A stretch of 14,226 nt of DNA from a virus: the UHGV virus genome UHGV-0207341; one strand, given 5' to 3'. This document shows positions 1-14,106 of the stretch, piece by piece. The notes under the pieces are model-generated. The model worked only from the letters and a program-made list of their open reading frames with translations, was not told where the DNA came from and made no database searches. Each line of letters starts with the position of its first letter. The first letter of the stretch is position 1. A program made the translations under genes and the position numbers.

Positions 1-1706
1 TTCAGGGATACCGCGTAGCCCGCATTGCTGAAATGCTGGGCGAGAAAGTTGCAACCGTTCACAGCTGGAAAAAACGCGACAAGTGGGGTGACTATGGGCC
101 GCTGGATCAGATGCAGCTCACCACCGCCGCACGCTATTGCCAGCTCATTATGAAGGAGCACAAAGAAGGGAAAGATTTCAAAGAAATTGACCTGCTGGCG
201 CGCCAGTCGGAGCGCCACGCGCGGATCGGCAAGTTTAACAATGGCGGCAACGAAGCCGACTTAAACCCTAACGTCGCCAACCGCAACAAGGGCCCGCGCC
301 GTCAGCCGGAAAAGAATGTTTTCACCGATGAACAGATTGAGAAGCTGGAAGAAATCTTCCATTCCTCCATGTTCAACTACCAGCGCCACTGGTGGGAAGC
401 CGGAAAAACCAACCGCATCCGCAACCTGCTGAAGTCACGCCAGATCGGCGCGACCTTTTACTTTGCCCGTGAAGCCCTGATTGACGCCCTGCTTACCGGA
501 CGTAACCAGATTTTCCTTTCCGCCAGTAAGGCACAGGCTCACGTCTTTAAGCAGTACATCATCGACTTCGCCAAAGAAGTGGAGGTGGAGCTGAAAGGCG
601 ATCCGATGGTGCTTCCTAACGGGGCCACGCTTTACTTCCTCGGCACCAATGCCCGCACGGCCCAGAGTTATCACGGCAACCTGTATCTGGATGAATATTT
701 CTGGATACCGAAATTTCAGGAGCTGCGCAAAGTGGCTTCCGGTATGGCTATTCACAAGAAATGGCGGCAGACCTATTTTTCCACACCATCCAGTCTGACC
801 CACAGTGCTTATCCGTTCTGGTCCGGTGCGCTGTTCAACCGTGGGCGCAACAAAGCTGACAAGGTGGACATCGACCTGTCCCACAGCAATCTGGCCCCCG
901 GCCTTCTGTGCGCCGACGGGCAATACCGCCAGATAGTCACCGTGGAAGATGCGGTGCGCGGCGGCTGTAACCTGTTCGACCTCGACCAGTTGCGCATGGA
1001 GTACAGCCCGGACGAATACCAGAACCTGCTGATGTGTGAGTTCGTGGACGATCTCGCGTCCGTGTTCCCGTTCAGCGAGCTGCAGGCGTGCATGGTAGAC
1101 AGCTGGGAAGTCTGGACCGACTTTCATGCACTGGCCCTTCGCCCGTTTGGCTGGCGCGAAGTGTGGATCGGTTATGACCCGGCAAAAGGTACGCAGAACG
1201 GCGACAGTGCCGGATGCGTGGTGGTGGCACCGCCAGCCGTGTCGGGTGGTAAGTTTCGCATTCTTGAGCGTCACCAGTGGCGCGGGATGGACTTCCGCGC
1301 CCAGGCTGACGCCATCAAAAAACTGACCGAACAGTACAACGTGACCTACATCGGCATCGACTCGACCGGCGTCGGCCACGGGGTTTACGAGAACGTGAAA
1401 GCGTTTTTTCCAGCCGTCCGGGAGTTTGTCTACAACCCCAACGTTAAAAACGCCCTGGTACTCAAAGCCTACGACATTATCAGTCACCGCCGTCTGGAGT
1501 TTGACGCCGGGCATACCGACATTGCGCAGTCCTTTATGGCAATCCGTCGTGCCACCACCGCCAGTGGCAACCGCCCGACCTATGAAGCCAGCCGCAGCGA
1601 AGAAGCCAGCCACGCCGATCTGGCGTGGGCAACGATGCACGCACTGTTTAACGAACCGCTGCAGGGCGAATCCGCCAATACCAGCAATATTGTGGAGATT
1701 TTTTGA
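1..1706 (+). CDS. P: Terminase ATPase (large) subunit, P2 gpP family; 5' end lies upstream of the window
   Basis: Frame is open from the window edge (no stop before the in-frame ATG at 33) to TGA at 1704-1706. Size and character of the 557+ aa translation fit P2-family terminase ATPase subunits (recognition by eye). Stop overlaps the portal start (TGATG), matching the P-then-Q late operon order. Confidence 0.85.
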   Translation, partial: QGYRVARIAEMLGEKVATVHSWKKRDKWGDYGPLDQMQLTTAARYCQLIMKEHKEGKDFKEIDLLARQSERHARIGKFNNGGNEADLNPNVANRNKGPRRQPEKNVFTDEQIEKLEEIFHSSMFNYQRHWWEAGKTNRIRNLLKSRQIGATFYFAREALIDALLTGRNQIFLSASKAQAHVFKQYIIDFAKEVEVELKGDPMVLPNGATLYFLGTNARTAQSYHGNLYLDEYFWIPKFQELRKVASGMAIHKKWRQTYFSTPSSLTHSAYPFWSGALFNRGRNKADKVDIDLSHSNLAPGLLCADGQYRQIVTVEDAVRGGCNLFDLDQLRMEYSPDEYQNLLMCEFVDDLASVFPFSELQACMVDSWEVWTDFHALALRPFGWREVWIGYDPAKGTQNGDSAGCVVVAPPAVSGGKFRILERHQWRGMDFRAQADAIKKLTEQYNVTYIGIDSTGVGHGVYENVKAFFPAVREFVYNPNVKNALVLKAYDIISHRRLEFDAGHTDIAQSFMAIRRATTASGNRPTYEASRSEEASHADLAWATMHALFNEPLQGESANTSNIVEIF

Positions 1707-2734
1707 TGGGAAAGAGTAAAAAGAACCGCGCTGCGTCGACGAACCAGATCCAGCATAAAAGCCAGACTTCAGCCGAAGCATTCAGCTTTGGTGATCCCAT
1801 TCCTGTACTGGACCGCCGCGAACTGCTGGACTATGTGGAATGCGTACAGACGGATCGCTGGTATGAGCCACCCGTAAGTTTTGACGGACTGGCGCGCACC
1901 TTCCGCGCTGCCGTGCATCACAGTTCCCCGATTGCAGTAAAGTGCAACATTCTGACCAGTACCTATATCCCTCATCCGCTGCTCAGCCAACAGGCTTTTT
2001 CGCGTTTTGTGCAGGACTATCTGGTATTTGGTAACGCCTACCTGGAGAAACGCACGAACCGATTCGGTGAAGTTATCGCCCTTGAGCCTGCGCTGGCAAA
2101 ATACACCCGACGTGGGTTAGACCTGGATACCTACTGGTTTGTGCAATACGGCATGACTACGCAGCCGTATCAGTTCACGAAAGGCAGCATTTTTCATCTG
2201 ATGGAACCGGACATCAACCAGGAGATCTACGGCCTGCCCGGTTATCTTTCTGCCATTCCGTCAGCCCTGCTCAACGAGTCCGCCACGCTGTTCCGCCGTA
2301 AGTATTACATCAACGGCAGCCATGCAGGCTTCATCATGTACATGACCGATGCCGCGCAGAATCAGGAGGATGTGAACAACCTCCGCAACGCGATGAAAAG
2401 TGCCAAAGGTCCTGGTAACTTCCGTAACCTGTTTATGTACTCGCCTAACGGTAAAAAAGACGGGCTTCAGATTATCCCGTTGTCAGAAGTCGCGGCGAAG
2501 GATGAATTTCTTAACATCAAGAACGTGAGTCGGGATGACATGATGGCAGCGCATCGTGTGCCGCCACAAATGATGGGGATTATGCCGAATAATGTTGGGG
2601 GGTTTGGGGATGTGGAGAAGGCTAGTAAAGTATTTGTTCGTAATGAGTTATTACCGTTGCAAAAAAGATTACAGGAAATAAACATATGGCTAGATGAGGA
2701 AATAGTAACATTCGATAGTTATCAGCTTACTTGA
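1706..2734 (+). CDS. Q: Portal (capsid vertex) protein, P2 gpQ family
   Basis: 342-aa ORF starting at ATG 1706 (the track's 1703 start is a TTG one codon upstream), with GGAG about 6 nt upstream. Size and position immediately downstream of the terminase gene fit P2 gpQ. Followed by a strong hairpin terminator. Confidence 0.85.
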   Translation: MGKSKKNRAASTNQIQHKSQTSAEAFSFGDPIPVLDRRELLDYVECVQTDRWYEPPVSFDGLARTFRAAVHHSSPIAVKCNILTSTYIPHPLLSQQAFSRFVQDYLVFGNAYLEKRTNRFGEVIALEPALAKYTRRGLDLDTYWFVQYGMTTQPYQFTKGSIFHLMEPDINQEIYGLPGYLSAIPSALLNESATLFRRKYYINGSHAGFIMYMTDAAQNQEDVNNLRNAMKSAKGPGNFRNLFMYSPNGKKDGLQIIPLSEVAAKDEFLNIKNVSRDDMMAAHRVPPQMMGIMPNNVGGFGDVEKASKVFVRNELLPLQKRLQEINIWLDEEIVTFDSYQLT

Positions 2735-2766: not shown

Positions 2767-3369
2767 TCAACCAAGAATGGACTTCAATGACAAATTGAGC
2801 TTATCAATTAATTTTTCATCCTCATAGTTTACAGACTTGATGTTTTTGAGCATCGCAGGCAATTCAGCATCACCAATTATCACAGGAATTATAGGAACAT
2901 AGTTTTCATCTTTTACCGTAGCTTTACGGAGAAAGCCCTCTACCTCTTTTCTTATATATGACTCCATATCTTCATTAGACAGAAGCAATATAGCCGCAGC
3001 GCTATTGTCTATAGCCTGATTAATTTGCTTTTCAATAATCTGCCCGGGCAATATGTTATTTTCATCAAACCATACATCAAAACCTAACTCATTAAGCTTA
3101 CAAGTTATTTGACGGGCCTTATCTTTTTCTTGTACGGGATACATTAGAAATATTTGCTTTCCTTTTTTAACGGCCTTTAGTCTTCTTTCCCTTAATTTCA
3201 TTAACACAATCAAACTCAGGCCAGAATAGGCAAAAGATAAGCCAATCACGGAGATGATAATCTCATCATTAACTCCTTGAAATAAATATGGGAGCCGTGG
3301 AATAAGAGCCATAAGAAACCCAACAACAGCCAATGCAATTGAAATAATATAAAGAGTATTTTTTTTCAT
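2767..3369 (-). CDS. Membrane-anchored TIR-like domain protein (2 predicted N-terminal TM helices plus C-terminal TIR-like domain)
   Basis: 200-aa ORF. Two hydrophobic segments at about residues 6-24 and 37-57, then a basic linker. Residues about 72-200 show the TIR pattern by eye: IFLMY strand, helix, DVWFDENNILPGQII, EKQINQAIDNSAAAILLLS, SYIRKEVEGF helix, VPIIPVII strand. ATG at 3367-3369 directly abuts the TAA of the upstream gene (TAAATG). Gene looks strongly AT-rich versus neighbouring phage core genes. Confidence 0.75.
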   Translation of the reverse strand: MKKNTLYIISIALAVVGFLMALIPRLPYLFQGVNDEIIISVIGLSFAYSGLSLIVLMKLRERRLKAVKKGKQIFLMYPVQEKDKARQITCKLNELGFDVWFDENNILPGQIIEKQINQAIDNSAAAILLLSNEDMESYIRKEVEGFLRKATVKDENYVPIIPVIIGDAELPAMLKNIKSVNYEDEKLIDKLNLSLKSILG

Positions 3370-3786
3370 TTACACACCCTTAATCCACAAAACAAAGGAA
3401 GCAAAAAATAATATGCCGACTAAATTACACCCAATACATAAAACCCAAATTTGACCTTTTGGATTTCCTGTTCGCCCTTCCCAATCTTGATGAAAAGACA
3501 TGATCCCCAGTAATACAAAAAGAGAGAAGGCAAGAAAGCTAGTAGTTCCAATGTACTGATTAACCACTTGGTTAACCGTGGTTACTGTTTGAACAGTTTT
3601 AGTCAAATCATATAAATTCAACAATGATGCACCAATTGTTGATAATATCAACTCATTCCCAAAGTAAAAATCACTCTTTTGCCAACCAGAGGATCTGGCA
3701 AGTTTTTTTACAAAAGCCCCACATAGAATCATCAACAATGGAAAAATTAAAGCAACAACGTATTTATTACCAATGACATCAATCAT
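3370..3786 (-). CDS. Small polytopic inner-membrane protein (about 4 predicted TM helices), unknown function; first gene of the TIR operon
   Basis: 138-aa ORF with ATG at 3784-3786 and AAGGAA about 9 nt upstream. Hydrophobic segments at about residues 10-26, 45-60, 82-98 and 112-135. Stop is immediately followed by the ATG of the TIR-like gene. AT-rich. Confidence 0.7.
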   Translation of the reverse strand: MIDVIGNKYVVALIFPLLMILCGAFVKKLARSSGWQKSDFYFGNELILSTIGASLLNLYDLTKTVQTVTTVNQVVNQYIGTTSFLAFSLFVLLGIMSFHQDWEGRTGNPKGQIWVLCIGCNLVGILFFASFVLWIKGV

Positions 3787-3976
3787 TAATCATCATTCCT
3801 TCAATAAATCGCATCACGCCTTTTTGTTTTTAGCTTCATCCACAACCAGTCACCATCGACATCAATATATCACATACTAAATATATAATAATTTTATCGA
3901 ACTATACAAAGCAACCAAGAGTAAAAATAACATACTCTGCCTTACATTCGAAAGGACATTATTATCCCAACGCGCG

Positions 3977-3995
3977 CTCGTATCCCCGCCACGCC
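3977..3995. other. Candidate cos (cohesive end) site of the P2/186 type
   Basis: The minus strand reads GGCGTGGCGGGGATACGAG. The first 13 nt match my recollection of the conserved GGCG(A/T)GGCGGGGA start of the 19-nt cohesive ends of P2 and 186. It is a GC-rich island in an AT-rich intergenic region, with an inverted repeat TCATGCA-GT-TGCATGA (4018-4033) alongside. Exact ends not verifiable from sequence alone. Confidence 0.35.
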
Positions 3996-4040
3996 TGCCC
4001 GCTTTATGTAGTGGTTTTCATGCAGTTGCATGATCTACGC

Positions 4041-4064
4041 AAAAGCCCGCCAGTTCTGGCGGGC
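4041..4064 (-). terminator. Rho-independent terminator of the 71-aa/280-aa operon
   Basis: GC-rich hairpin GCCCGCCAG-(tt)-CTGGCGGGC at 4045-4064, followed on the minus strand by TTTT (plus-strand AAAA 4041-4044). Lies 49 nt downstream of the stop of the 280-aa gene. Confidence 0.7.
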
Positions 4065-4112
4065 CTCAGCAAAAATGATCCTCAAACGATCATGCGATCT
4101 CATGCAGCATAG

Positions 4113-4955
4113 TCATGCACGATCATTTGACTCAGCATCTGCTGCACGCTTGCTGCGCGAAGATGCACTTTTACTACCAATCTTTCGACAGTTCTTTCTA
4201 TCCCTGGCTTCATTTTCTTTAAATTTGTTATATGTCTCAGTATCAAAAAACGAAATTGTTTCAACCTCATCTTTTGGTATGAGCACACGGAAATCTTCGA
4301 TATTAAGCCGAGACATTCCACTTATCACACCACTATCAAGATAATGTTGGTGATAGTTAGTCGTGATACTAATCGTTAGATCATCTTTATCCCGATATCC
4401 GCTTAACATCGGGAGAAGTTCAAGGTGCTCTGAAAGCCCGTTTTCTAACGCCGGACAAGTAACAAGGCCAACATAGATTTTGCGAGACGACAGAGTTGCT
4501 ATGATCGGAAACTGTCTTGCGGACGCTTCCATAAGTAATGATTCGAAAGCGTTATTACCCACAGCTTTAGCTAAGGCATCCCAGCGACGATCTCCACGTG
4601 ATGTGCGTAACTTATTTCCAAAACCTGAAATCGCAGCGAGGACAATTGAAATCATAACCCATGCTATCTGTTTGATTTCATTTATTCTTTGAAGTTTGTC
4701 TTTCGATGAAGACAACATGCCATTAAAACTGTCAGGTGTTAGATTCAAGGCATTAGCCAGCCAACGAAACCCTCCGCTGACGTTCAAAATAAAGGTGAAA
4801 AAACCGCCAAGGAGAAAAAAAACGATACCCCAGGCAGCCACAAAAAAATAAGCGTCCCAGCCGTTGGAACGCTTATATCGGTATCTTGTTGAAAGTGATA
4901 GGTTTACATAAATAAAACCACTAACCAAAATCACTGCTAAAAGTAATGTTGCCAT
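4113..4955 (-). CDS. Membrane protein of unknown function (3 predicted N-terminal TM helices plus about 170-aa C-terminal soluble domain with a basic tail)
   Basis: 280-aa ORF with ATG at 4953-4955, overlapping the stop of the upstream 71-aa ORF (TAATG). Hydrophobic segments at about residues 3-17, 36-57 and 97-113. Family not recognised. Followed by its own terminator. Confidence 0.7.
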   Translation of the reverse strand: MATLLLAVILVSGFIYVNLSLSTRYRYKRSNGWDAYFFVAAWGIVFFLLGGFFTFILNVSGGFRWLANALNLTPDSFNGMLSSSKDKLQRINEIKQIAWVMISIVLAAISGFGNKLRTSRGDRRWDALAKAVGNNAFESLLMEASARQFPIIATLSSRKIYVGLVTCPALENGLSEHLELLPMLSGYRDKDDLTISITTNYHQHYLDSGVISGMSRLNIEDFRVLIPKDEVETISFFDTETYNKFKENEARDRKNCRKIGSKSASSRSKRAADAESNDRA

Positions 4956-5170
4956 TATCTGGTTCTATTAGTTTTCTCTTTTACAGTGCTCGTTTTGATG
5001 CCTTCAAGCTTATCCATCTGTGCCTTGATGGCATCCATTGCTCTTTTGTTAGACAAGTCTACGGACACAAAACCATCTTTACTAAGATTGAGTTTGTCCT
5101 GGTTCTCTTTAAGAACCCTTGCCAGACGTTCAACTGGGTTACCCAGGCTAAATGCGGCGATGCTTGACAT
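4955..5170 (-). CDS. Small hypothetical protein (71 aa), first gene of a two-gene operon with the 280-aa membrane protein
   Basis: ATG at 5168-5170 with GGGGGAG about 5 nt upstream. Stop overlaps the next ATG by one base. Hydrophilic, no recognisable domain by eye. Confidence 0.6.
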   Translation of the reverse strand: MSSIAAFSLGNPVERLARVLKENQDKLNLSKDGFVSVDLSNKRAMDAIKAQMDKLEGIKTSTVKEKTNRTR

Positions 5171-5440
5171 AACTCCCCCTTTTCACATGGCGCGGAAGTC
5201 TACACTCCGACGCCTACAACCTCAACAGATTATCTTTAAAATTTAGACAACAATATCATCTGTTGATTTCGTTACTTAAACTTAAGTTCAATGCGCTCGA
5301 TCATGCAAGCGGTTTCTTAAGAACTGTTAATTTCCTGGCATATATAGTGGTTAAGGTAACAAATTGACACTAACGCCTCGCATAGCTCGTTGTTCAACCT
5401 TGCTGACGCCAGAAGCAAGTTCAGACGCCAGCAACGTTTC

Positions 5441-5674
5441 TTAATGCAGCCAGCTGTCGTCTTCCCACACCTTCTGCATAATTTTCATCACTTGTTTTCT
5501 TTCTTCGTCCTGTTGCAGTCCGGTCAGTTCCACACCGTTAGAGCTACCTTTGCGGATACGAATTACCGTTTTGGGATACAGGGGGCGCAGATTGCGGTAA
5601 AGCTCGGATTCAAGGGCGTCCAGTGTAGACTGGCTAATCTTCTGCTCTTTATCGATCATTATTTCAATGCGCAT
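5441..5674 (-). CDS. DinI-family protein (resembles the C-terminal DinI-like half of phage 186 Tum antirepressor)
   Basis: Taking the internal ATG at 5672-5674 (GAGGTG 5 nt upstream), the 77-aa product begins MRIEIMIDKEQ and ends WEDDSWLH. This parallels E. coli DinI (MRIEVTIAK ... ETWESADDWFV) by eye. The longer track ORF (start 5746) overlaps the upstream gene and is unlikely. Confidence 0.75.
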   Translation of the reverse strand: MRIEIMIDKEQKISQSTLDALESELYRNLRPLYPKTVIRIRKGSSNGVELTGLQQDEERKQVMKIMQKVWEDDSWLH

Positions 5675-5684
5675 AAAAGTCACC

Positions 5685-5873
5685 TCAGCTGATGACATCC
5701 ATTGAGCGGTTGTATTCGTGGGTTCTGATTTTTGCCATGAGTTCATCAGTCAATTCAGAAACCCACTGCAGAGCCAGCCCCTTCTCTTCATCACTACACT
5801 CACTAGCCGCTACAAGCTTAAGAAAAAAATCAATGCGCTGGAGCTTCAAAGACTCCAAAAAATAGTCCTGCAT
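5685..5873 (-). CDS. Small hypothetical protein (62 aa) immediately upstream of the DinI-like gene; possible N-terminal part of a Tum-like antirepressor
   Basis: ATG at 5871-5873 preceded by AGGAGG about 4 nt upstream. Its TGA stop sits inside the ribosome-binding site of the DinI-like gene. Lies directly downstream of a LexA box. Confidence 0.6.
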   Translation of the reverse strand: MQDYFLESLKLQRIDFFLKLVAASECSDEEKGLALQWVSELTDELMAKIRTHEYNRSMDVIS

Positions 5874-5916
5874 CTTTCCTCCTATAACACCACAAGCAAT
5901 GCTGTATGCATAACCA

Positions 5917-5932
5917 CTGTTTATATTTACAG
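5917..5932 (-). promoter_or_regulatory. LexA (SOS) box overlapping the -10 of a minus-strand promoter upstream of the Tum/DinI-like operon
   Basis: aCTGT-TTATATTT-ACAGta fits the CTGT-N8-ACAG LexA consensus. On the minus strand a -35-like TTTACA (plus 5952-5957) precedes -10 candidates TATACT or TACTGT that overlap the box. Located about 40 nt upstream of the 62-aa ORF start. Confidence 0.6.
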
Positions 5933-6027
5933 TATATAATAATCTTACTGATGTAAAACGTTTTTTTTACGTTCATCAGCCTGATATGCCTGGTATTATT
6001 AAGAGCACGAATTGTTAATCCGCGTAA

Positions 6028-8442
6028 TTAATACAGGTTCCGCCACTTATCATCTTCCTGCAAACGCTGGTTCCGATAGAAGATACGCAGGCCTGCTCCT
6101 GACGGAATGCTGCCGCCGCGAAGGAGTAAATCGACCTCTTTCTCGCTGCCATCAAATCCTCTGGACTTCAGTTCATAGACGAGCTGCTGTCGTTGATGGT
6201 CTGTAATTCGCTGTTTGTAGTCTTTACGCCGTTTCGGTTTCACCAGGCGTAACCTTGCTGCCAGTTCCCGGCGCTCTTTTTTGCTCATACTGTGCAGGTA
6301 ATCGTGCAACTCCTTGTCATCCATACGGGTGATATCCGTTCTGGTATCTCCATCAGCTGATTTGTCTTTCCCTTGTTGGTACAAATTTTCAGCAAGGGGA
6401 CAGTTATTGCCACGAGTCCAAGGGGCGCAAGCGCCCTGGTCGGCTACCGCCTCCTGAACGTCAACGGCCTTACGAACCATTTTCCACTTCACTGCATGAG
6501 TGCAGATCTTGCCCTCTGCAATGGGTGACCAGATGCCATAAATACGAATGCCGTGATCGCCATAGGCGGTCGGCTCTTCGTTGATTTCATAAGCGGTTCT
6601 GATAAGGTGATATTTACGGGGAACCAGTACGCCGCCCTGCTTCATGATGTAGGTGGCAAAACAACCAGCATCAGCAGCAGCCAGGATGGCATCAAGGCGC
6701 GGGTCATCCAGTATCGGCGCACCTGCTTTTTTGTCACCCTGTTGCCTTGCCGCCTGACCAGCCAGCAAGCGAAGTTCACGGTAAGCCTGACGTCCCGGAA
6801 TACCAAAGAAGCGGAACTGCTGAACACGATGCAGAGACGCCCAGGCATTAACGTATTCGGCGTTATCACGCAGGGATTTACCCGTTTCCTTGCTGATCTC
6901 GCCAGCCAGACCACGCCCGTCAATGTTCTTACTGATGTATTTCGCGATGTAGCTTGTCGGTGTTCCTTTGCGCGGGTTAATCAGCTCAGACTTAAAGCGT
7001 GGCCCCGTGTTGTTGCCCAGCTCCTCGCGGTCTACACGGATGGCAAACTTACGCAGTAATGCAGTGATGGCGCGGCGGTCTTTTTTACGCATGAAGCACA
7101 TGAGATGCCAGTGCACAGTACCGTCATGGTGCGGCTCAGCCACCCGCACGCCATACCAGCGCAACCCGGTTTTGTGCATTGCCTTACGAAATGCAGCAAA
7201 CATGCCGACCATATAATCGCTGCTTTGTCTTACCGTCGCATTTGTCCAGGTCGGGTTGGGTCTGCCGTTGTTGAGCGTGGAATGGAAACGTGACGGACAG
7301 GTGATAGTGTAGAAAACGGCGCAGTCACCGCGCATTTCCGCGATAAGCTCCAGACCTTTAACACAGGCCATCATCTCATTGCGGCGATGCGCAGGGTTGC
7401 TGCTGCTGGCGTTTACCACATCCTCCATGTCCAGCGTGTCGCCGTCTTCGTTCACCAGTTCATGAGAACGGAAAAACTCCAGCGACTTACGGCGCAGCTC
7501 ACGTTTATGCATCACGGCTTCATAGCTGACATAGGGAGATGCTTTTTTGCTGACCAGGCAGACAGCACGCAACTGCTCTTCCCGCCATTCGCAACGCATC
7601 TTCCATAATTTCCGATACCACCAGTCGGCGCACAACATACGCGCCAGCGAACCCGGAATGAGTTCATAGGGCACGGGTTTACGGCGGTTTCTTTTCCGAC
7701 GGAGTAGCTCAAACGCAGGTGGGATGACATCCAGACGCAGGGTTTCCGCCGCCACCTTTTCCCATGTCTTGCGGATTTCTTCTGGCTTAACGTCATCGGT
7801 GGCATACAAATCGCCACAAGCTGCATCAAGGCACATGCTCATATGCGCAGCTACCAGGGTGGACAGGCGTTTCACCTGATCCTGACTCATTTCAGGCAGG
7901 ATCAGCAGGCCCTCCAGCCCTTGATGGCTTGCCATAAAACGGAAAGAAGCAGACAGCTGACTGTCACGTACACAATCCAGTCGCTCCAGACATGGCTTAA
8001 TCGTCTCACGCAAATAGCGGGAATAAGCCTTTGGCCTGCCCAGGCTGCTGAAGTATTCGATACGTTGCATCAGCGGCTTGCTAATATGGGTGGGCTGGGC
8101 GCTGACGTCCGCCAGAATGACCATGTCCGGGTTAAAACGCTGCTGTTCATGCGCTAGCTTTGCCCGGCTAATGAGCTTATCCTGCTCCATTTCGCGCTGG
8201 ACAGGATCACGAGATTCATTAAAGAAATAACGCTCCCAGACCTGCTCACTCAGTGCATCGCGGCGCAGCTGTTCCTGCTCATTATCGGCAGCGTACAGAG
8301 TGATCAGGTTTAAAAGTGCAGACTCCGGAGCAACTTCCGCCGGGTCCAGATAAGGGTTAATGGCCTTTTTCGGGCCGTTCCATGAAAATGCTGCAGCGGC
8401 CTCGTTAAAGCCGCTAGAGTTGCTCATATCGTCATGACTCAT
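6028..8442 (-). CDS. A: Replication initiation protein (rolling-circle initiator endonuclease), P2 gpA family
   Basis: 804-aa ORF, the largest in the early operon. Size, position downstream of small early genes and general character fit P2/186 A protein (recognition by eye; catalytic motifs not verified). Start ATG at 8440-8442 overlaps the Dam stop (ATGA); a second in-frame ATG five codons downstream is an alternative start. Confidence 0.8.
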
Positions 8443-9296
8443 ACACGCACCTCGTACACAGCAGAACTATCCACGCCACACGAAGGATCAAATCCCACCC
8501 AGCAGCGCGCCCCGGAAACAGCAATGATTTCTGTTGCAGATTTACTCTCGCCAGCCGACACGCCGATGCTGCGTTTTGCCTTGATGTAGTGGTGAGTGAA
8601 ATTTCGATACAGCGAACGGATCAGGGATGTGTCACTGTTAGAAACAATGACTGGATGACCTTCTGATGATCGATATTCAAGAACAGATGCCAGGTGATAC
8701 TGGTCATCTTCAGTGAAGCCGTCAGTGTGATAGCCGGAAAACGTACCGTCATAAGGCGGATCGCAATACACCACATCCCCCACCTGCAGCATCGCCAGCG
8801 TTTCATCAAAGCTGGCGCAGATAAACGTTGCTCGCTGGGCTTTCTCTGCAAATGCGCGAATTTCTTTTTCAGGGAAATACGGATTTTTATAATTACCGTA
8901 TGGAATGTTGAAATGCCCGCTCTTGTTATAACGACATAACCCACGGTAACCATGACGATTGAGATACAGGAAATATACCGCTTTCATGAAATCAGTAATT
9001 TCAGTGGAGTAATTAAACTCCTGCCTTATGTTGTAATAAGCCACCTCCCTGTTTGCTTCCTCAAATAAAGCTCTGGCACGAGATATAAACGCCTCGCAAT
9101 CAGCAGCAACCTTTTTATAGAGGTTGATTAAATCAGGATTAATATCCGCAACAAGATAGCTGGGGTAATCCGTCTCCATCATCACAGCACAGGAACCCGC
9201 GAAAGGTTCAACCAGTCGCGGGCCAGCAGGAAGATGTTTTTTCAGTTCGGACATAATGGCAGTTTTATTACCCGCCCATTTCAGGATGGTGCTCAT
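8439..9296 (-). CDS. dam: DNA adenine methyltransferase (Dam-like, N6-adenine)
   Basis: 285 aa from ATG at 9294-9296. Translation contains [33 protein letters not shown] and DPPY, paralleling E. coli Dam almost motif-for-motif by eye. Start overlaps the upstream stop (ATGA) and stop overlaps the A start. Confidence 0.85.
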
Positions 9297-9595
9297 ACAG
9301 CACCTCCTGCAATAACATATCCTAAAGCTTCTAATGGGGTTAATGGGCGAATTGATAGCATCACCCATTGTTCTGAAACTGCCATGACGTCATTAACCGG
9401 AAGCACATGAGAGATAACAGCGGCCCATTCCCTACCCGTAAATACGCCATGCTTCCATTCGCAAAGAGAAAGAACATCACCAACTTTATAGCCACGATCG
9501 TCTTTACGAAGTTCAGCCGTCTTTTGACCTGCAACCACAGCGTTGAAATACTTAGGTGCAATTTTTAATTGATGGATACGCACTGCCCTTGTCAT
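9293..9595 (-). CDS. DUF3850/ASCH-like (PUA-fold) small protein
   Basis: 100 aa from ATG at 9593-9595. The N-terminal pattern [35 protein letters not shown] is typical of DUF3850 proteins, which often accompany phage methyltransferases (recognition by eye). Start overlaps the upstream stop (ATGA). Confidence 0.6.
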
Positions 9596-12654: not shown

Positions 12655-14106
12655 ATGGATATTGAGTGGAATTGGGATCAAGATGACGAATTTCTTGGTG
12701 AAAAATTACCTGCTGATACATTGGACAGAAAAAAGTACGCAAAATATCTTTATGAAATCTGTGCTGCACGCGGTGCTAAATCCAATCTCGTAGTTAACAT
12801 TAATGCGGAATGGGGGGCTGGAAAAACATATTTTACTAAACGCCTAGCCAAGACAATTTCCCACTACCATCCCACAATATACATTGATGCTTGGAAAGAA
12901 GATTTTACTGAAGACCCATTGCTCACAGTATTTAGTGGAATTAAAGATCAATTATCTGGTCAATCTGATAGCTTTACTGCTTTAATCAATTCAACAATTG
13001 AGAATGTCGGTCCTTTGCTAAAAACAGCGGCACCAGTTATTATTGATGGATTAATACAAAAGTTCACAGGGGTTGACTCCTTTTCTAACCTAACTAAAGA
13101 CTTATCATCTAAGCTAATAGAAATACACGCAGAAAAATCAACGAGAATAGAGACAGTAAGAAAAGGAATTAGTCGTTGGGTTGAATTCATTGGGCGAAAA
13201 GATGGAATAGATAAAGAGCTTCCATTATTTATAATAATTGATGAACTTGATAGATGTAGGCCCGATTTTTCCATTAGTCTTTTAGAAATCTCCAAGCATA
13301 TTTTTAACATCCCTGGCGTAGTATTTATTATTGCCACTGACACCCAACAATTACAGCATTCAATAAAAGTTATATATGGCACTAATTTTTCAGCAAGTCA
13401 TTATCTAAGCAGGTTTTTTGACCGTCGATTCCTTCTCCCAACGCCAGAATACAAAGACTTACTATTAACAAAAACAGGTGAAAACATAATTTCGGAATTT
13501 AATTCTTTACGTAAAAAATTAATTCCATGCCCACAAGACATCACATCATTTGTTAAAAATTGTTCATCCATATTATTATCCATAAAAATAAACATCAGAG
13601 ACGCTGTAAAAATATACGAGAGGCTAATAGACATACTTATCACGTCAAATAAAACATTTGACCCCAATCTAATGTTGATATTATCTGCATTTAATTTCAA
13701 AGATCATGATGTATATGCAAAAATAAAATCAAAAGAAAAGCTAATTCCTAGTCCTCTCAACACAGAGATAGATTTATCATTTGATTTATCTTATGAAACT
13801 ACACAAGTCAAGTACTTCCAAGCTAATGGTGGTGTTTATAGTAATACGTATAAACAAAAAGAAATTTCAACAAATGTTCTATTTTACATAGAGACTGCTT
13901 GGAACACCTTAACGATAGCAAGAACCGCACCTGTTGGCACGCGACCTTACAATACTCCAGAACTTTGGATGGAAGGAGAGTTGTCTCAGGAGGAATCATT
14001 AGCGAACTTTCTCAAAATGGGATACGCCAAAAGCCGGTACAATGAAAGTGAACTAAAAATTCATCAATATTTCGATTTAATTGAACTGAGCACAACATTT
14101 GATTGA
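12655..14106 (+). CDS. KAP-family P-loop NTPase (soluble variant), accessory gene in the repressor operon
   Basis: 483-aa ORF. Walker A in NINAEWGAGKTYF, the KAP-typical IDAWKEDF motif, and Walker B in FIIIDELDRCRP (the DELDRC signature). ATG at 12655 follows the cI TAA with zero spacer, with GAGG 5 nt upstream. Looks strongly AT-rich. No obvious TM insert between Walker A and B. Confidence 0.8.
   Translation: MDIEWNWDQDDEFLGEKLPADTLDRKKYAKYLYEICAARGAKSNLVVNINAEWGAGKTYFTKRLAKTISHYHPTIYIDAWKEDFTEDPLLTVFSGIKDQLSGQSDSFTALINSTIENVGPLLKTAAPVIIDGLIQKFTGVDSFSNLTKDLSSKLIEIHAEKSTRIETVRKGISRWVEFIGRKDGIDKELPLFIIIDELDRCRPDFSISLLEISKHIFNIPGVVFIIATDTQQLQHSIKVIYGTNFSASHYLSRFFDRRFLLPTPEYKDLLLTKTGENIISEFNSLRKKLIPCPQDITSFVKNCSSILLSIKINIRDAVKIYERLIDILITSNKTFDPNLMLILSAFNFKDHDVYAKIKSKEKLIPSPLNTEIDLSFDLSYETTQVKYFQANGGVYSNTYKQKEISTNVLFYIETAWNTLTIARTAPVGTRPYNTPELWMEGELSQEESLANFLKMGYAKSRYNESELKIHQYFDLIELSTTFD

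Follow-up and report, generated by a model that had tools for sequence, protein, structure and literature searches.

A mobile two-gene cassette next to cos in a 186/P2-like Escherichia coli prophage pairs a predicted Sm-like membrane protein with a small soluble partner

Prophage morons are known to encode inner-membrane proteins that exclude superinfecting phages, with HK97 gp15, P22 SieA and T4 Imm as described examples. Phage P2 carries its non-essential old and tin genes in the interval between replication gene A and cos. MscS, a membrane protein of another kind, combines three transmembrane (TM) helices in an N-out/C-in orientation with a beta domain that lies in the cytoplasm and belongs to the Sm-like fold class. 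Here we describe a two-gene cassette from the A-to-cos interval of UHGV virus genome UHGV-0207341, of which one stretch of 14,226 nucleotides was analysed (the window). The window is a 186/P2-like E. coli prophage, and its positions 4000-5440 match the chromosome of strain GF130 (E. coli) at 100% identity. The two genes (the pair) encode a soluble protein of 71 amino acids (aa) and a 280-aa inner-membrane protein. We conclude that the pair is a mobile accessory ('moron') cassette and not a core phage function. As to what it does, we give a probability of about 40% to a phage exclusion or abortive-infection module built on an oligomeric membrane ring and tied to the SOS response in some lineages.

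No paper on this family was found in the searchable literature. The pair (WP_000094764 + WP_000212611) is listed as 'hypothetical + hypothetical' at the P2 hotspot in Table S5A of Rousset et al. 2022 (PMC9122126), where its neighbours are PIN_12, DUF262/DUF1524 or SieB genes. It is not among the systems cloned or tested in that study, as judged by the lack of a sequence match in Tables S2A and S2B (PMC9122126). The genes, their start signals and the limits of the cassette are as follows.

4955-5170, minus strand: gene 1, the 71-aa soluble protein (small partner)
4113-4955, minus strand: gene 2, the 280-aa inner-membrane protein
4953-4957, minus strand: TAATG stop/start overlap of the two genes (sequence reading)
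5173-5179, minus strand: strong Shine-Dalgarno sequence GGGGGAG of gene 1 (sequence reading)
4121-5369, no strand assigned: inserted cassette of 1,249 bp (blastn of the window against phage vB_EcoM-813R9)

An earlier, sequence-only reading of this locus had proposed two translationally coupled genes. Both minus-strand open reading frames (ORFs) are indeed present, and their overlap can be read directly (...agaTAATGgca), with one base common to the TAA of gene 1 and the ATG of gene 2. On reading the sequence before gene 2, we saw no Shine-Dalgarno sequence comparable to that of gene 1, which fits translational coupling. Homologues of both proteins occur at 25-90% identity in Gammaproteobacteria, Betaproteobacteria and Acidobacteria, and judged from their sequences both ORFs are genuine genes. 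When 1.84 billion cluster representatives were scanned in full with HMMER (E <= 1e-3, clusters at 50% identity), 2,887 clusters fell into the 280-aa family, mostly as full-length matches of 240-300 aa. We also took a census of the partner at 80 loci on one-genome-per-species contigs from the same three bacterial groups. A small upstream ORF of 41-112 aa was found on the same strand at 74 of these, ending anywhere from 13 nt inside to 62 nt before the membrane gene. The hidden Markov model (HMM) of the small family recognises 49 of the 74 small ORFs; the remaining ones, mainly from Pseudomonas, have by eye the same core, 'G-x-h-x-h-D/N' followed by a helix. Since the partner accompanies the membrane gene at 74 of 80 loci, the two genes form an evolutionarily stable unit.

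That this unit is accessory is clearest from comparison with phage vB_EcoM-813R9, which is collinear with the window at 3971-4120 and 5370-5999 and has 7 bp in place of the 1,249 bp of the cassette. In this phage, DinI lies directly beside the cos flank and the pair is absent. The clean insertion, together with the absence of the pair from P2, 186 and most of their relatives, bears out the earlier proposal of a non-essential accessory unit in the A-to-cos interval. That proposal also survived a comparison with the genes that P2 and 186 carry there (old, tin and orf91; the 186 tum operon): no homology to a P2 or 186 gene of known non-defensive function was found, and tblastn detected no homologue of the 280-aa protein in either phage. 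The GC content of the cassette is 40.7%, against 45.9% for the window.

The pair is found in varied settings. In a tblastn search of a phage collection, the 280-aa protein was found in only six distinct phages, all temperate. Among 5,426 complete E. coli genomes, 52 contain the pair at ~99% identity, and ~10 more contain a diverged copy. In Enterobacter the pair lies between the lambda-like tail genes K and I/J, and in an Aeromonas veronii prophage (locus L011 of our collection, 5785-6765) it has tail genes on one side and the tape-measure gene on the other. An E. coli lambdoid copy sits in the nin region beside hok, the Shewanella copy at a prophage edge, and a Salmonella diarizonae copy with 30% identity in another P2-like A-cos interval. 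Other copies are found beside a relaxase and a giant helicase on a mobilisable element (Pantoea ananatis), near an integrase (Methylovorus), or with DinI and no other phage gene within 6 kb (Pectobacterium). Unrelated cargo positions of this sort are what one would expect from a moron or defence-type cassette. Of the Pfam families found in the 150 flanking ORFs, phage integrase, portal, GPA and terminase are the most frequent; matches to known defence genes are few (type I restriction endonuclease, SspD, HEC-05 and PDC candidates).

Three of these loci have features of their own. In the Aeromonas prophage, the pair occupies the usual position of the tail-assembly chaperone (G/GT), and no chaperone ORF was called there. 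Downstream of the Pantoea pair (L019, 5845-10795) are a DUF6650 protein and a protein of ~1,837 aa with DUF4011, AAA_11/AAA_12 helicase, MTES_1575 and DUF3320, a neighbourhood that resembles a defence island. The Pectobacterium loci (L003-L005, 5319-6819) consist of an island of LexA box, DinI and the pair among chromosomal genes of an ordinary kind (for a mechanosensitive channel, an MFS transporter and a non-ribosomal peptide synthetase). A blastn search revealed no DNA-level remnant of a P2-like gene A or cos in this island, which could be either the ancestral arrangement or a fully decayed prophage end.

On its downstream side, the cassette adjoins a conserved block that contains cos and a hairpin.

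3978-3996, minus strand: cos cohesive end, GGCGTGGCGGGGATACGAG on the minus strand (ends of linear phage records aligned to the window)
4041-4064, minus strand: GC-rich hairpin followed by UUUUG (fold of -34.7 kcal/mol, z = -4.1)

We assign 3978-3996 as the cohesive end because linear phage records end there: the records of Salmonella phage SEN8 and Erwinia phage EtG have an end that aligns to window position 3996, and that of Escherichia phage Midge ends within ~10 nt of it. The sequence GGCGTGGCGGGGATACGAG is one that we take to be close to the cos sequence of 186, P2 and P4. The resemblance to P4 cos is also based on the P4 sequence given in Table S2A of PMC9122126. The hairpin, ~45 nt from the cos end, had been read as a strong rho-independent terminator belonging to the gene pair. 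It is strong as a hairpin, but it is followed by only four U and for that reason fails a terminator scan. The block that holds it (3971-4120) is kept in ~100 P2-like phage records, most of which lack the pair, and this hairpin can also be recognised in pFR109, a clone of the unrelated 'hp+hp+hp' locus (PMC9122126, Table S2A). Because this block is conserved in phages without the cassette, the hairpin is, on this comparison, a conserved right-end or cos-flank element and not a cassette-specific terminator. It may terminate rightward transcription. Cos and its conserved flank stand in the middle of a cargo region whose content varies in both directions (the pair towards A; PIN, TIR and other genes towards Q).

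The upstream side of the cassette faces an SOS operon, and the features that bear on its expression are these.

5171-5369, minus strand: cassette-owned leader of 199 bp (boundary by comparison with vB_EcoM-813R9)
5303-5308 (-35) and 5279-5284 (-10), minus strand: candidate weak sigma-70 promoter TTGCAT-N18-TAAGTT (by eye and alignment)
5396-5438, minus strand: hairpin just past the DinI stop codon, with no U-tract (fold; within the block 5370-5440 shared with cassette-less phages)
5441-5674, minus strand: DinI-like gene, 77 aa (Pfam DinI, 5.9e-23; the 77-aa form is the annotation in a RefSeq relative)
5685-5873, minus strand: 62-aa ORF
5917-5932, no strand assigned: perfect LexA box CTGTTTATATTTACAG (pattern search; upstream of the 62aa-DinI operon)

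The longest DinI ORF spans 5441-5746 (101 aa) and overlaps the 62-aa ORF. The LexA box, the 62-aa ORF and the DinI-like gene together have a likeness to the SOS-controlled tum operon of phage 186. As for the promoter-like leader of 270 bp that had been proposed for the pair, 199 bp of it lie in the cassette, while 5370-5440 is the flank of DinI and a consensus promoter is missing: a scan of the leader's minus strand for sigma-70 consensus sites was negative. The position of the candidate weak promoter is nevertheless kept in the leaders of the Klebsiella phage, Pectobacterium and E. coli lambdoid copies, and a TTGnnn-N16-18-TAnnnT pattern can be seen by eye 50-150 nt upstream of the small gene in most related leaders. 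We infer that a weak promoter owned by the cassette drives the pair.

An insulated, self-contained transcription unit, as the locus had first been described, is not supported. The downstream hairpin is generic cos flank, LexA boxes lie in the leaders of other lineages, and no canonical terminator separates the LexA-boxed 62aa-DinI operon from the pair, the sole structure between them being the hairpin at ~5396-5438. As this hairpin lacks a U-tract, read-through from the LexA promoter into the pair is possible, and the LexA box at 5917-5932 possibly serves the pair as well.

To place this in a wider frame, we surveyed all related loci collected (991 kb) for perfect CTGT-N8-ACAG sites. Of 32 perfect LexA boxes, at least 16 fall in the 800 nt upstream of a copy of the pair. 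The box is in the leader of the pair itself at loci L012/13 (150 nt upstream), in a Proteus copy inside a tail-gene cluster (L051, 183 nt), in Photorhabdus (L058/63/66/69, 238 nt) and in a P2-like phage (L032, 280 nt), where box and pair follow gene A directly with no DinI called between. In the window, at L023-27 and in Pectobacterium (L003-5), the box is instead upstream of an intervening DinI gene. These loci are not independent samples, and we therefore count the recurrence as ~5 lineages, four of them with the box in the leader. Counted in this way, the recurrence of LexA boxes upstream of the pair is clear from the sequences, and SOS-linked expression is a reasonable hypothesis, although many copies of the family have no LexA box.

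Such wiring raises the question of whether the pair, expressed along with the SOS-controlled DinI/Tum-like genes, helps its own prophage through induction or the lytic cycle, acting at the membrane by RNA or DNA tethering on an Sm-like ring, by lysis timing or by protection of the induced cell. Sm/Hfq folds usually bind RNA, and in the window the pair comes right after the LexA-boxed operon, reads in the same direction and is not set off from it by a canonical terminator. At L032 it occupies the very position of the 62aa-DinI operon after gene A, and LexA box, DinI and pair go together in Pectobacterium. We nevertheless find a helper of this kind unlikely: P2, 186 and most P2-like phages lack the pair, the LexA box is missing in many copies, and a dedicated lytic role is hard to reconcile with the presence of the pair in unrelated phages and positions, including late tail operons, and on a non-phage element.

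What the two proteins could do can be approached from the 280-aa protein. The three N-terminal TM helices noted earlier were recovered as hydrophobic segments (residues 1-23, 34-63 and 94-112) that match three long helices in an AlphaFold model. As positive charge is abundant in the loops that follow TM1 and TM3, the positive-inside rule predicts an N-out/C-in topology, with the N-terminus probably periplasmic and the C-terminal domain cytoplasmic. That domain could not be assigned by eye in the earlier reading. In the AlphaFold2 monomer model (32-sequence alignment, mean pLDDT, the predicted local distance difference test, of 76.5; predicted template modelling score, pTM, of 0.55; medium confidence), it forms a predicted Sm/Hfq-like beta-barrel at residues ~136-236, followed by a basic tail. 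The modelled domain has both parts of the Sm fold, an alpha helix and a strongly bent five-stranded beta sheet. Across 43 diverse relatives, G13, Y36 and G43 are invariant in the TM region and K159, Y161, G163, P182, S185, G186, R188 and Y201 in the barrel; the invariant polar and aromatic residues are thus concentrated in the barrel.

The check by remote homology and structure therefore gave a fold for the C-terminal domain, by model, but no sequence-level relative of known function. Neither protein has a meaningful match in Pfam or NCBIfam. In PADLOC-DB v2.0.0, the best hit of the 280-aa protein is an unrelated transporter model at E = 0.14 and the 71-aa protein has no match. The 280-aa protein belongs to phrog_3630, a PHROG without an assigned function. 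Alignment of the family with hhalign indicated no relationship to E. coli Hfq (probability 0.1%) or to an MscK-like channel, a PDB sequence search with the family profile returned nothing at E <= 10, and Foldseek against the BFVD viral structures gave weak matches to Sm-like domains only, none at E <= 0.001. A remote link of the family to Pfam DUF6338 is possible. Two of the 43 distant relatives match it at E <= 0.01, and the one of them inspected closely (P0193) reaches 25.1 bits (cut-off 26.5) in the TM region only, while the window protein has no match even at E <= 10. Separately, tblastn matches in the temperate Cronobacter phage phiES15 (218-610) and Pseudomonas phages vB_Pae_U5/U6 span residues ~124-260 only, that is, the Sm-like domain without the TM region, which suggests stand-alone copies of this domain (see also phrog_23864).

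The 71-aa protein offers less to compare. It is soluble, has no TM segment and belongs to phrog_9843. Its model, a helix, a beta-hairpin and a helix, is of low confidence (pLDDT 67.5) and returned no structural match. Public records name the family (P0059-P0083) 'multidrug ABC transporter ATPase'. This cannot be right for a protein of 71 aa with no Pfam or NCBIfam match, and the name appears to be a propagated annotation error.

A small gene followed by a larger, overlapping one is the typical order of antitoxin-toxin operons, and the pair could on this ground be an SOS-induced growth-arrest or addiction module: a toxin (TisB, Hok or holin-like in function) that would depolarise or permeabilise the membrane and be restrained by the small protein, the benefit being element stabilisation or damage-induced dormancy instead of phage exclusion. 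LexA-controlled membrane toxins are familiar from tisB, dinQ and hokE. LexA boxes recur upstream of the pair, one lambdoid copy lies directly beside hok, and the pair is carried on many kinds of mobile element. However, the small protein has no recognisable antitoxin or DNA-binding fold, and the pair does not show the combination that marks type II toxin-antitoxin systems (a small RHH, HTH or AbrB antitoxin with a known toxin family; RHH, ribbon-helix-helix; HTH, helix-turn-helix). The larger protein, with its 280 aa, its invariant polar residues and a folded cytoplasmic domain that is conserved, looks more like a regulated sensor or effector than a simple membrane toxin. The two genes are also kept together at ~99% identity in 50 E. 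coli genomes, and no obvious orphan small genes were noticed. We consider an addiction module of this type unlikely; it would not be an exclusive alternative either, as many abortive-infection systems are formally toxin-antitoxin pairs.

Across cos from the pair lies a second unit that also encodes membrane proteins.

2767-3786, minus strand: genes for a 138-aa multi-TM protein and an abutting 200-aa TM-TIR protein, between cos and the portal gene

The 200-aa protein combines a TIR domain (Pfam TIR_2, 3.6e-17; weak ThsB and SAVED-TIR matches) with two TM helices at its N-terminus. Just 3 of the 5,426 complete E. coli genomes contain the unit of the 138-aa and TM-TIR genes, whose sequence features would make it a candidate defence system of the TIR-based kind, separate from the AC1 system '2TM+1TM+TIR'. 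The pair and these genes could also be parts of one four-gene system, in which the Sm-domain membrane effector would receive its signal from the TIR enzyme, by analogy with AC1. TIR genes are found near the pair both in the window and in Klebsiella phage ST15-OXA48phi14.1, and a system of a TIR and a TM protein in the same hotspot was validated by Rousset et al. (PMC9122126). The distribution largely refutes such a joint system, which we regard as highly improbable. We rejected it because cos (3978-3996) intervenes, placing the two gene pairs at opposite ends of the packaged genome, and because the window's TIR genes occur in only 3 of the 52 E. coli genomes that contain the pair. In strain GF130, the one other genome examined, the cargo across cos is a PIN protein; in the Klebsiella phage it is a 69-aa gene with a TIR protein of 477 aa, compared with 200 aa in the window. 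Most members of the family have no TIR neighbour, TIR is outside the 25 commonest neighbour Pfam families, and the AC1 proteins (Rst_2TM_1TM_TIR; PMC9122126, Table S2A) are by eye unrelated to those of the window.

We therefore return to exclusion or abortive infection, the reading that we prefer. The cytoplasmic Sm-like domains would assemble into a ring, as other Sm-fold proteins do, and this ring would bundle ~15-21 TM helices into a pore-like or platform-like structure in the inner membrane, with a general layout like that of MscS but no detectable homology to it. Ring and small partner together would sense a sign of infection or DNA damage in the cytoplasm, for which a nucleic acid or a nucleotide is the most plausible candidate. 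The family-invariant residues K159, Y161, G163, S185, G186, R188 and Y201 are located in the barrel. The response could be a block to genome entry of incoming phages (superinfection exclusion) or a permeabilised membrane (abortive infection). Expression would come from the weak promoter of the cassette, with possible LexA-controlled read-through from the 62aa-DinI operon in the window prophage. The module would thus be boosted during SOS, when neighbouring lysogens release temperate phages.

Several points weigh against this proposal. No PADLOC, Pfam or NCBIfam model matched either protein, and the ring, the pore activity and the ligand binding are all deduced from the medium-confidence monomer model (pLDDT 76.5, pTM 0.55). 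In the window, a pattern search found no LexA box in the cassette's own leader, and SOS control would in any case fit a toxin or a lytic-cycle role equally well. The defence-gene signal among the neighbours is modest, and many family members lie beside ordinary chromosomal genes. A broader claim would extend the same picture to the whole family as widespread, hitherto unrecognised two-component membrane machines, in which an Sm-like ring anchored by three TM helices senses nucleic acid or nucleotide and gates a pore or blocks genome entry, the partner serves as lid or trigger, and LexA controls the module directly in several lineages; we think this rather unlikely. What probability remains falls to functions outside the readings set out here.

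The rest of the window agrees with its assignment as a 186/P2-like prophage.

33-1706, plus strand: terminase P
1703-2734, plus strand: portal Q
6028-8442, minus strand: replication gene A
8439-9368, minus strand: Dam methylase

Along the minus strand, the order is gene A, the 62-aa ORF, DinI, the 71-aa/280-aa pair, the hairpin at 4041-4064, cos, the 138-aa and TM-TIR genes and portal Q. Further genes encode a TraR/DksA-type zinc-finger protein, DUF2732, DUF5347, Fil, CII/CP76, a 186-type CI repressor and a KAP NTPase. The last of these, a 483-aa KAP-family P-loop NTPase (12655-14106, plus strand), lies directly downstream of the CI repressor gene, and in a related prophage of strain GF130 its equivalent lies between cI and the integrase gene. 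It is likely another accessory or defence locus of the window prophage.

If the pair does exclude or abort phages, it would represent an unannotated defence family of ~2,900 clusters at 50% identity in Proteobacteria and Acidobacteria, missed by PADLOC, Pfam and NCBIfam. It would also show a membrane-anchored Sm/Hfq-like domain acting as sensor or effector, and provide an example of SOS-wired defence or exclusion. Should the broader picture of two-component membrane machines hold, this would be a new effector/sensor architecture in phage-phage conflict and the first membrane-anchored Sm-fold immune protein. Even without a role in defence, two PHROG families whose function is not assigned now have an assigned fold and a defined partner, the misannotation of the 71-aa family is corrected, and the cargo to either side of cos is mapped precisely for a 186-like prophage. 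The pair is a good candidate for experiment.

Among described systems, the exclusion proteins HK97 gp15, P22 SieA and T4 Imm resemble the pair in being small, dispensable accessory units of temperate phages with their own regulatory leader, in occupying cargo sites that include tail clusters, and in encoding an inner-membrane protein. The pair is unrelated to them in sequence (no functional match in Pfam, PHROG or PADLOC) and differs in its obligatory soluble partner and conserved cytoplasmic Sm-like domain. Lambda RexAB likewise combines a soluble and a polytopic membrane protein of a prophage, with a proposed action on membrane integrity; it shares no homology with the pair, whose soluble partner is tiny (71 aa) and whose membrane protein itself bears the folded cytoplasmic domain. 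With MscS, the 280-aa protein shares a similar size, three TM helices in a (here predicted) N-out/C-in orientation and a cytoplasmic beta domain of the Sm-like class. This is an architectural likeness only, and the Pfam MS_channel domain was not detected in the 280-aa protein. Compared with Hfq/Sm/LSm and WYL proteins, its domain is anchored in the membrane, has an insertion of ~20 residues and carries the motifs KxYxG and SGYRDKD in place of the Sm1/Sm2 or WYL motifs; no Pfam WYL match or conserved WYL motif was found in it. The P2 hotspot systems of Rousset et al. 2022 (old/tin, DUF4238, 3HP, DprA+PRTase and 2TM+1TM+TIR) occupy the same A-cos-Q hotspot as the pair (PMC9122126). A prophage moron that encodes a membrane protein is a familiar kind of element; the combination of a membrane-anchored Sm-like domain with a mini-partner, and its recurrent LexA wiring, sets this pair apart from the familiar ones.

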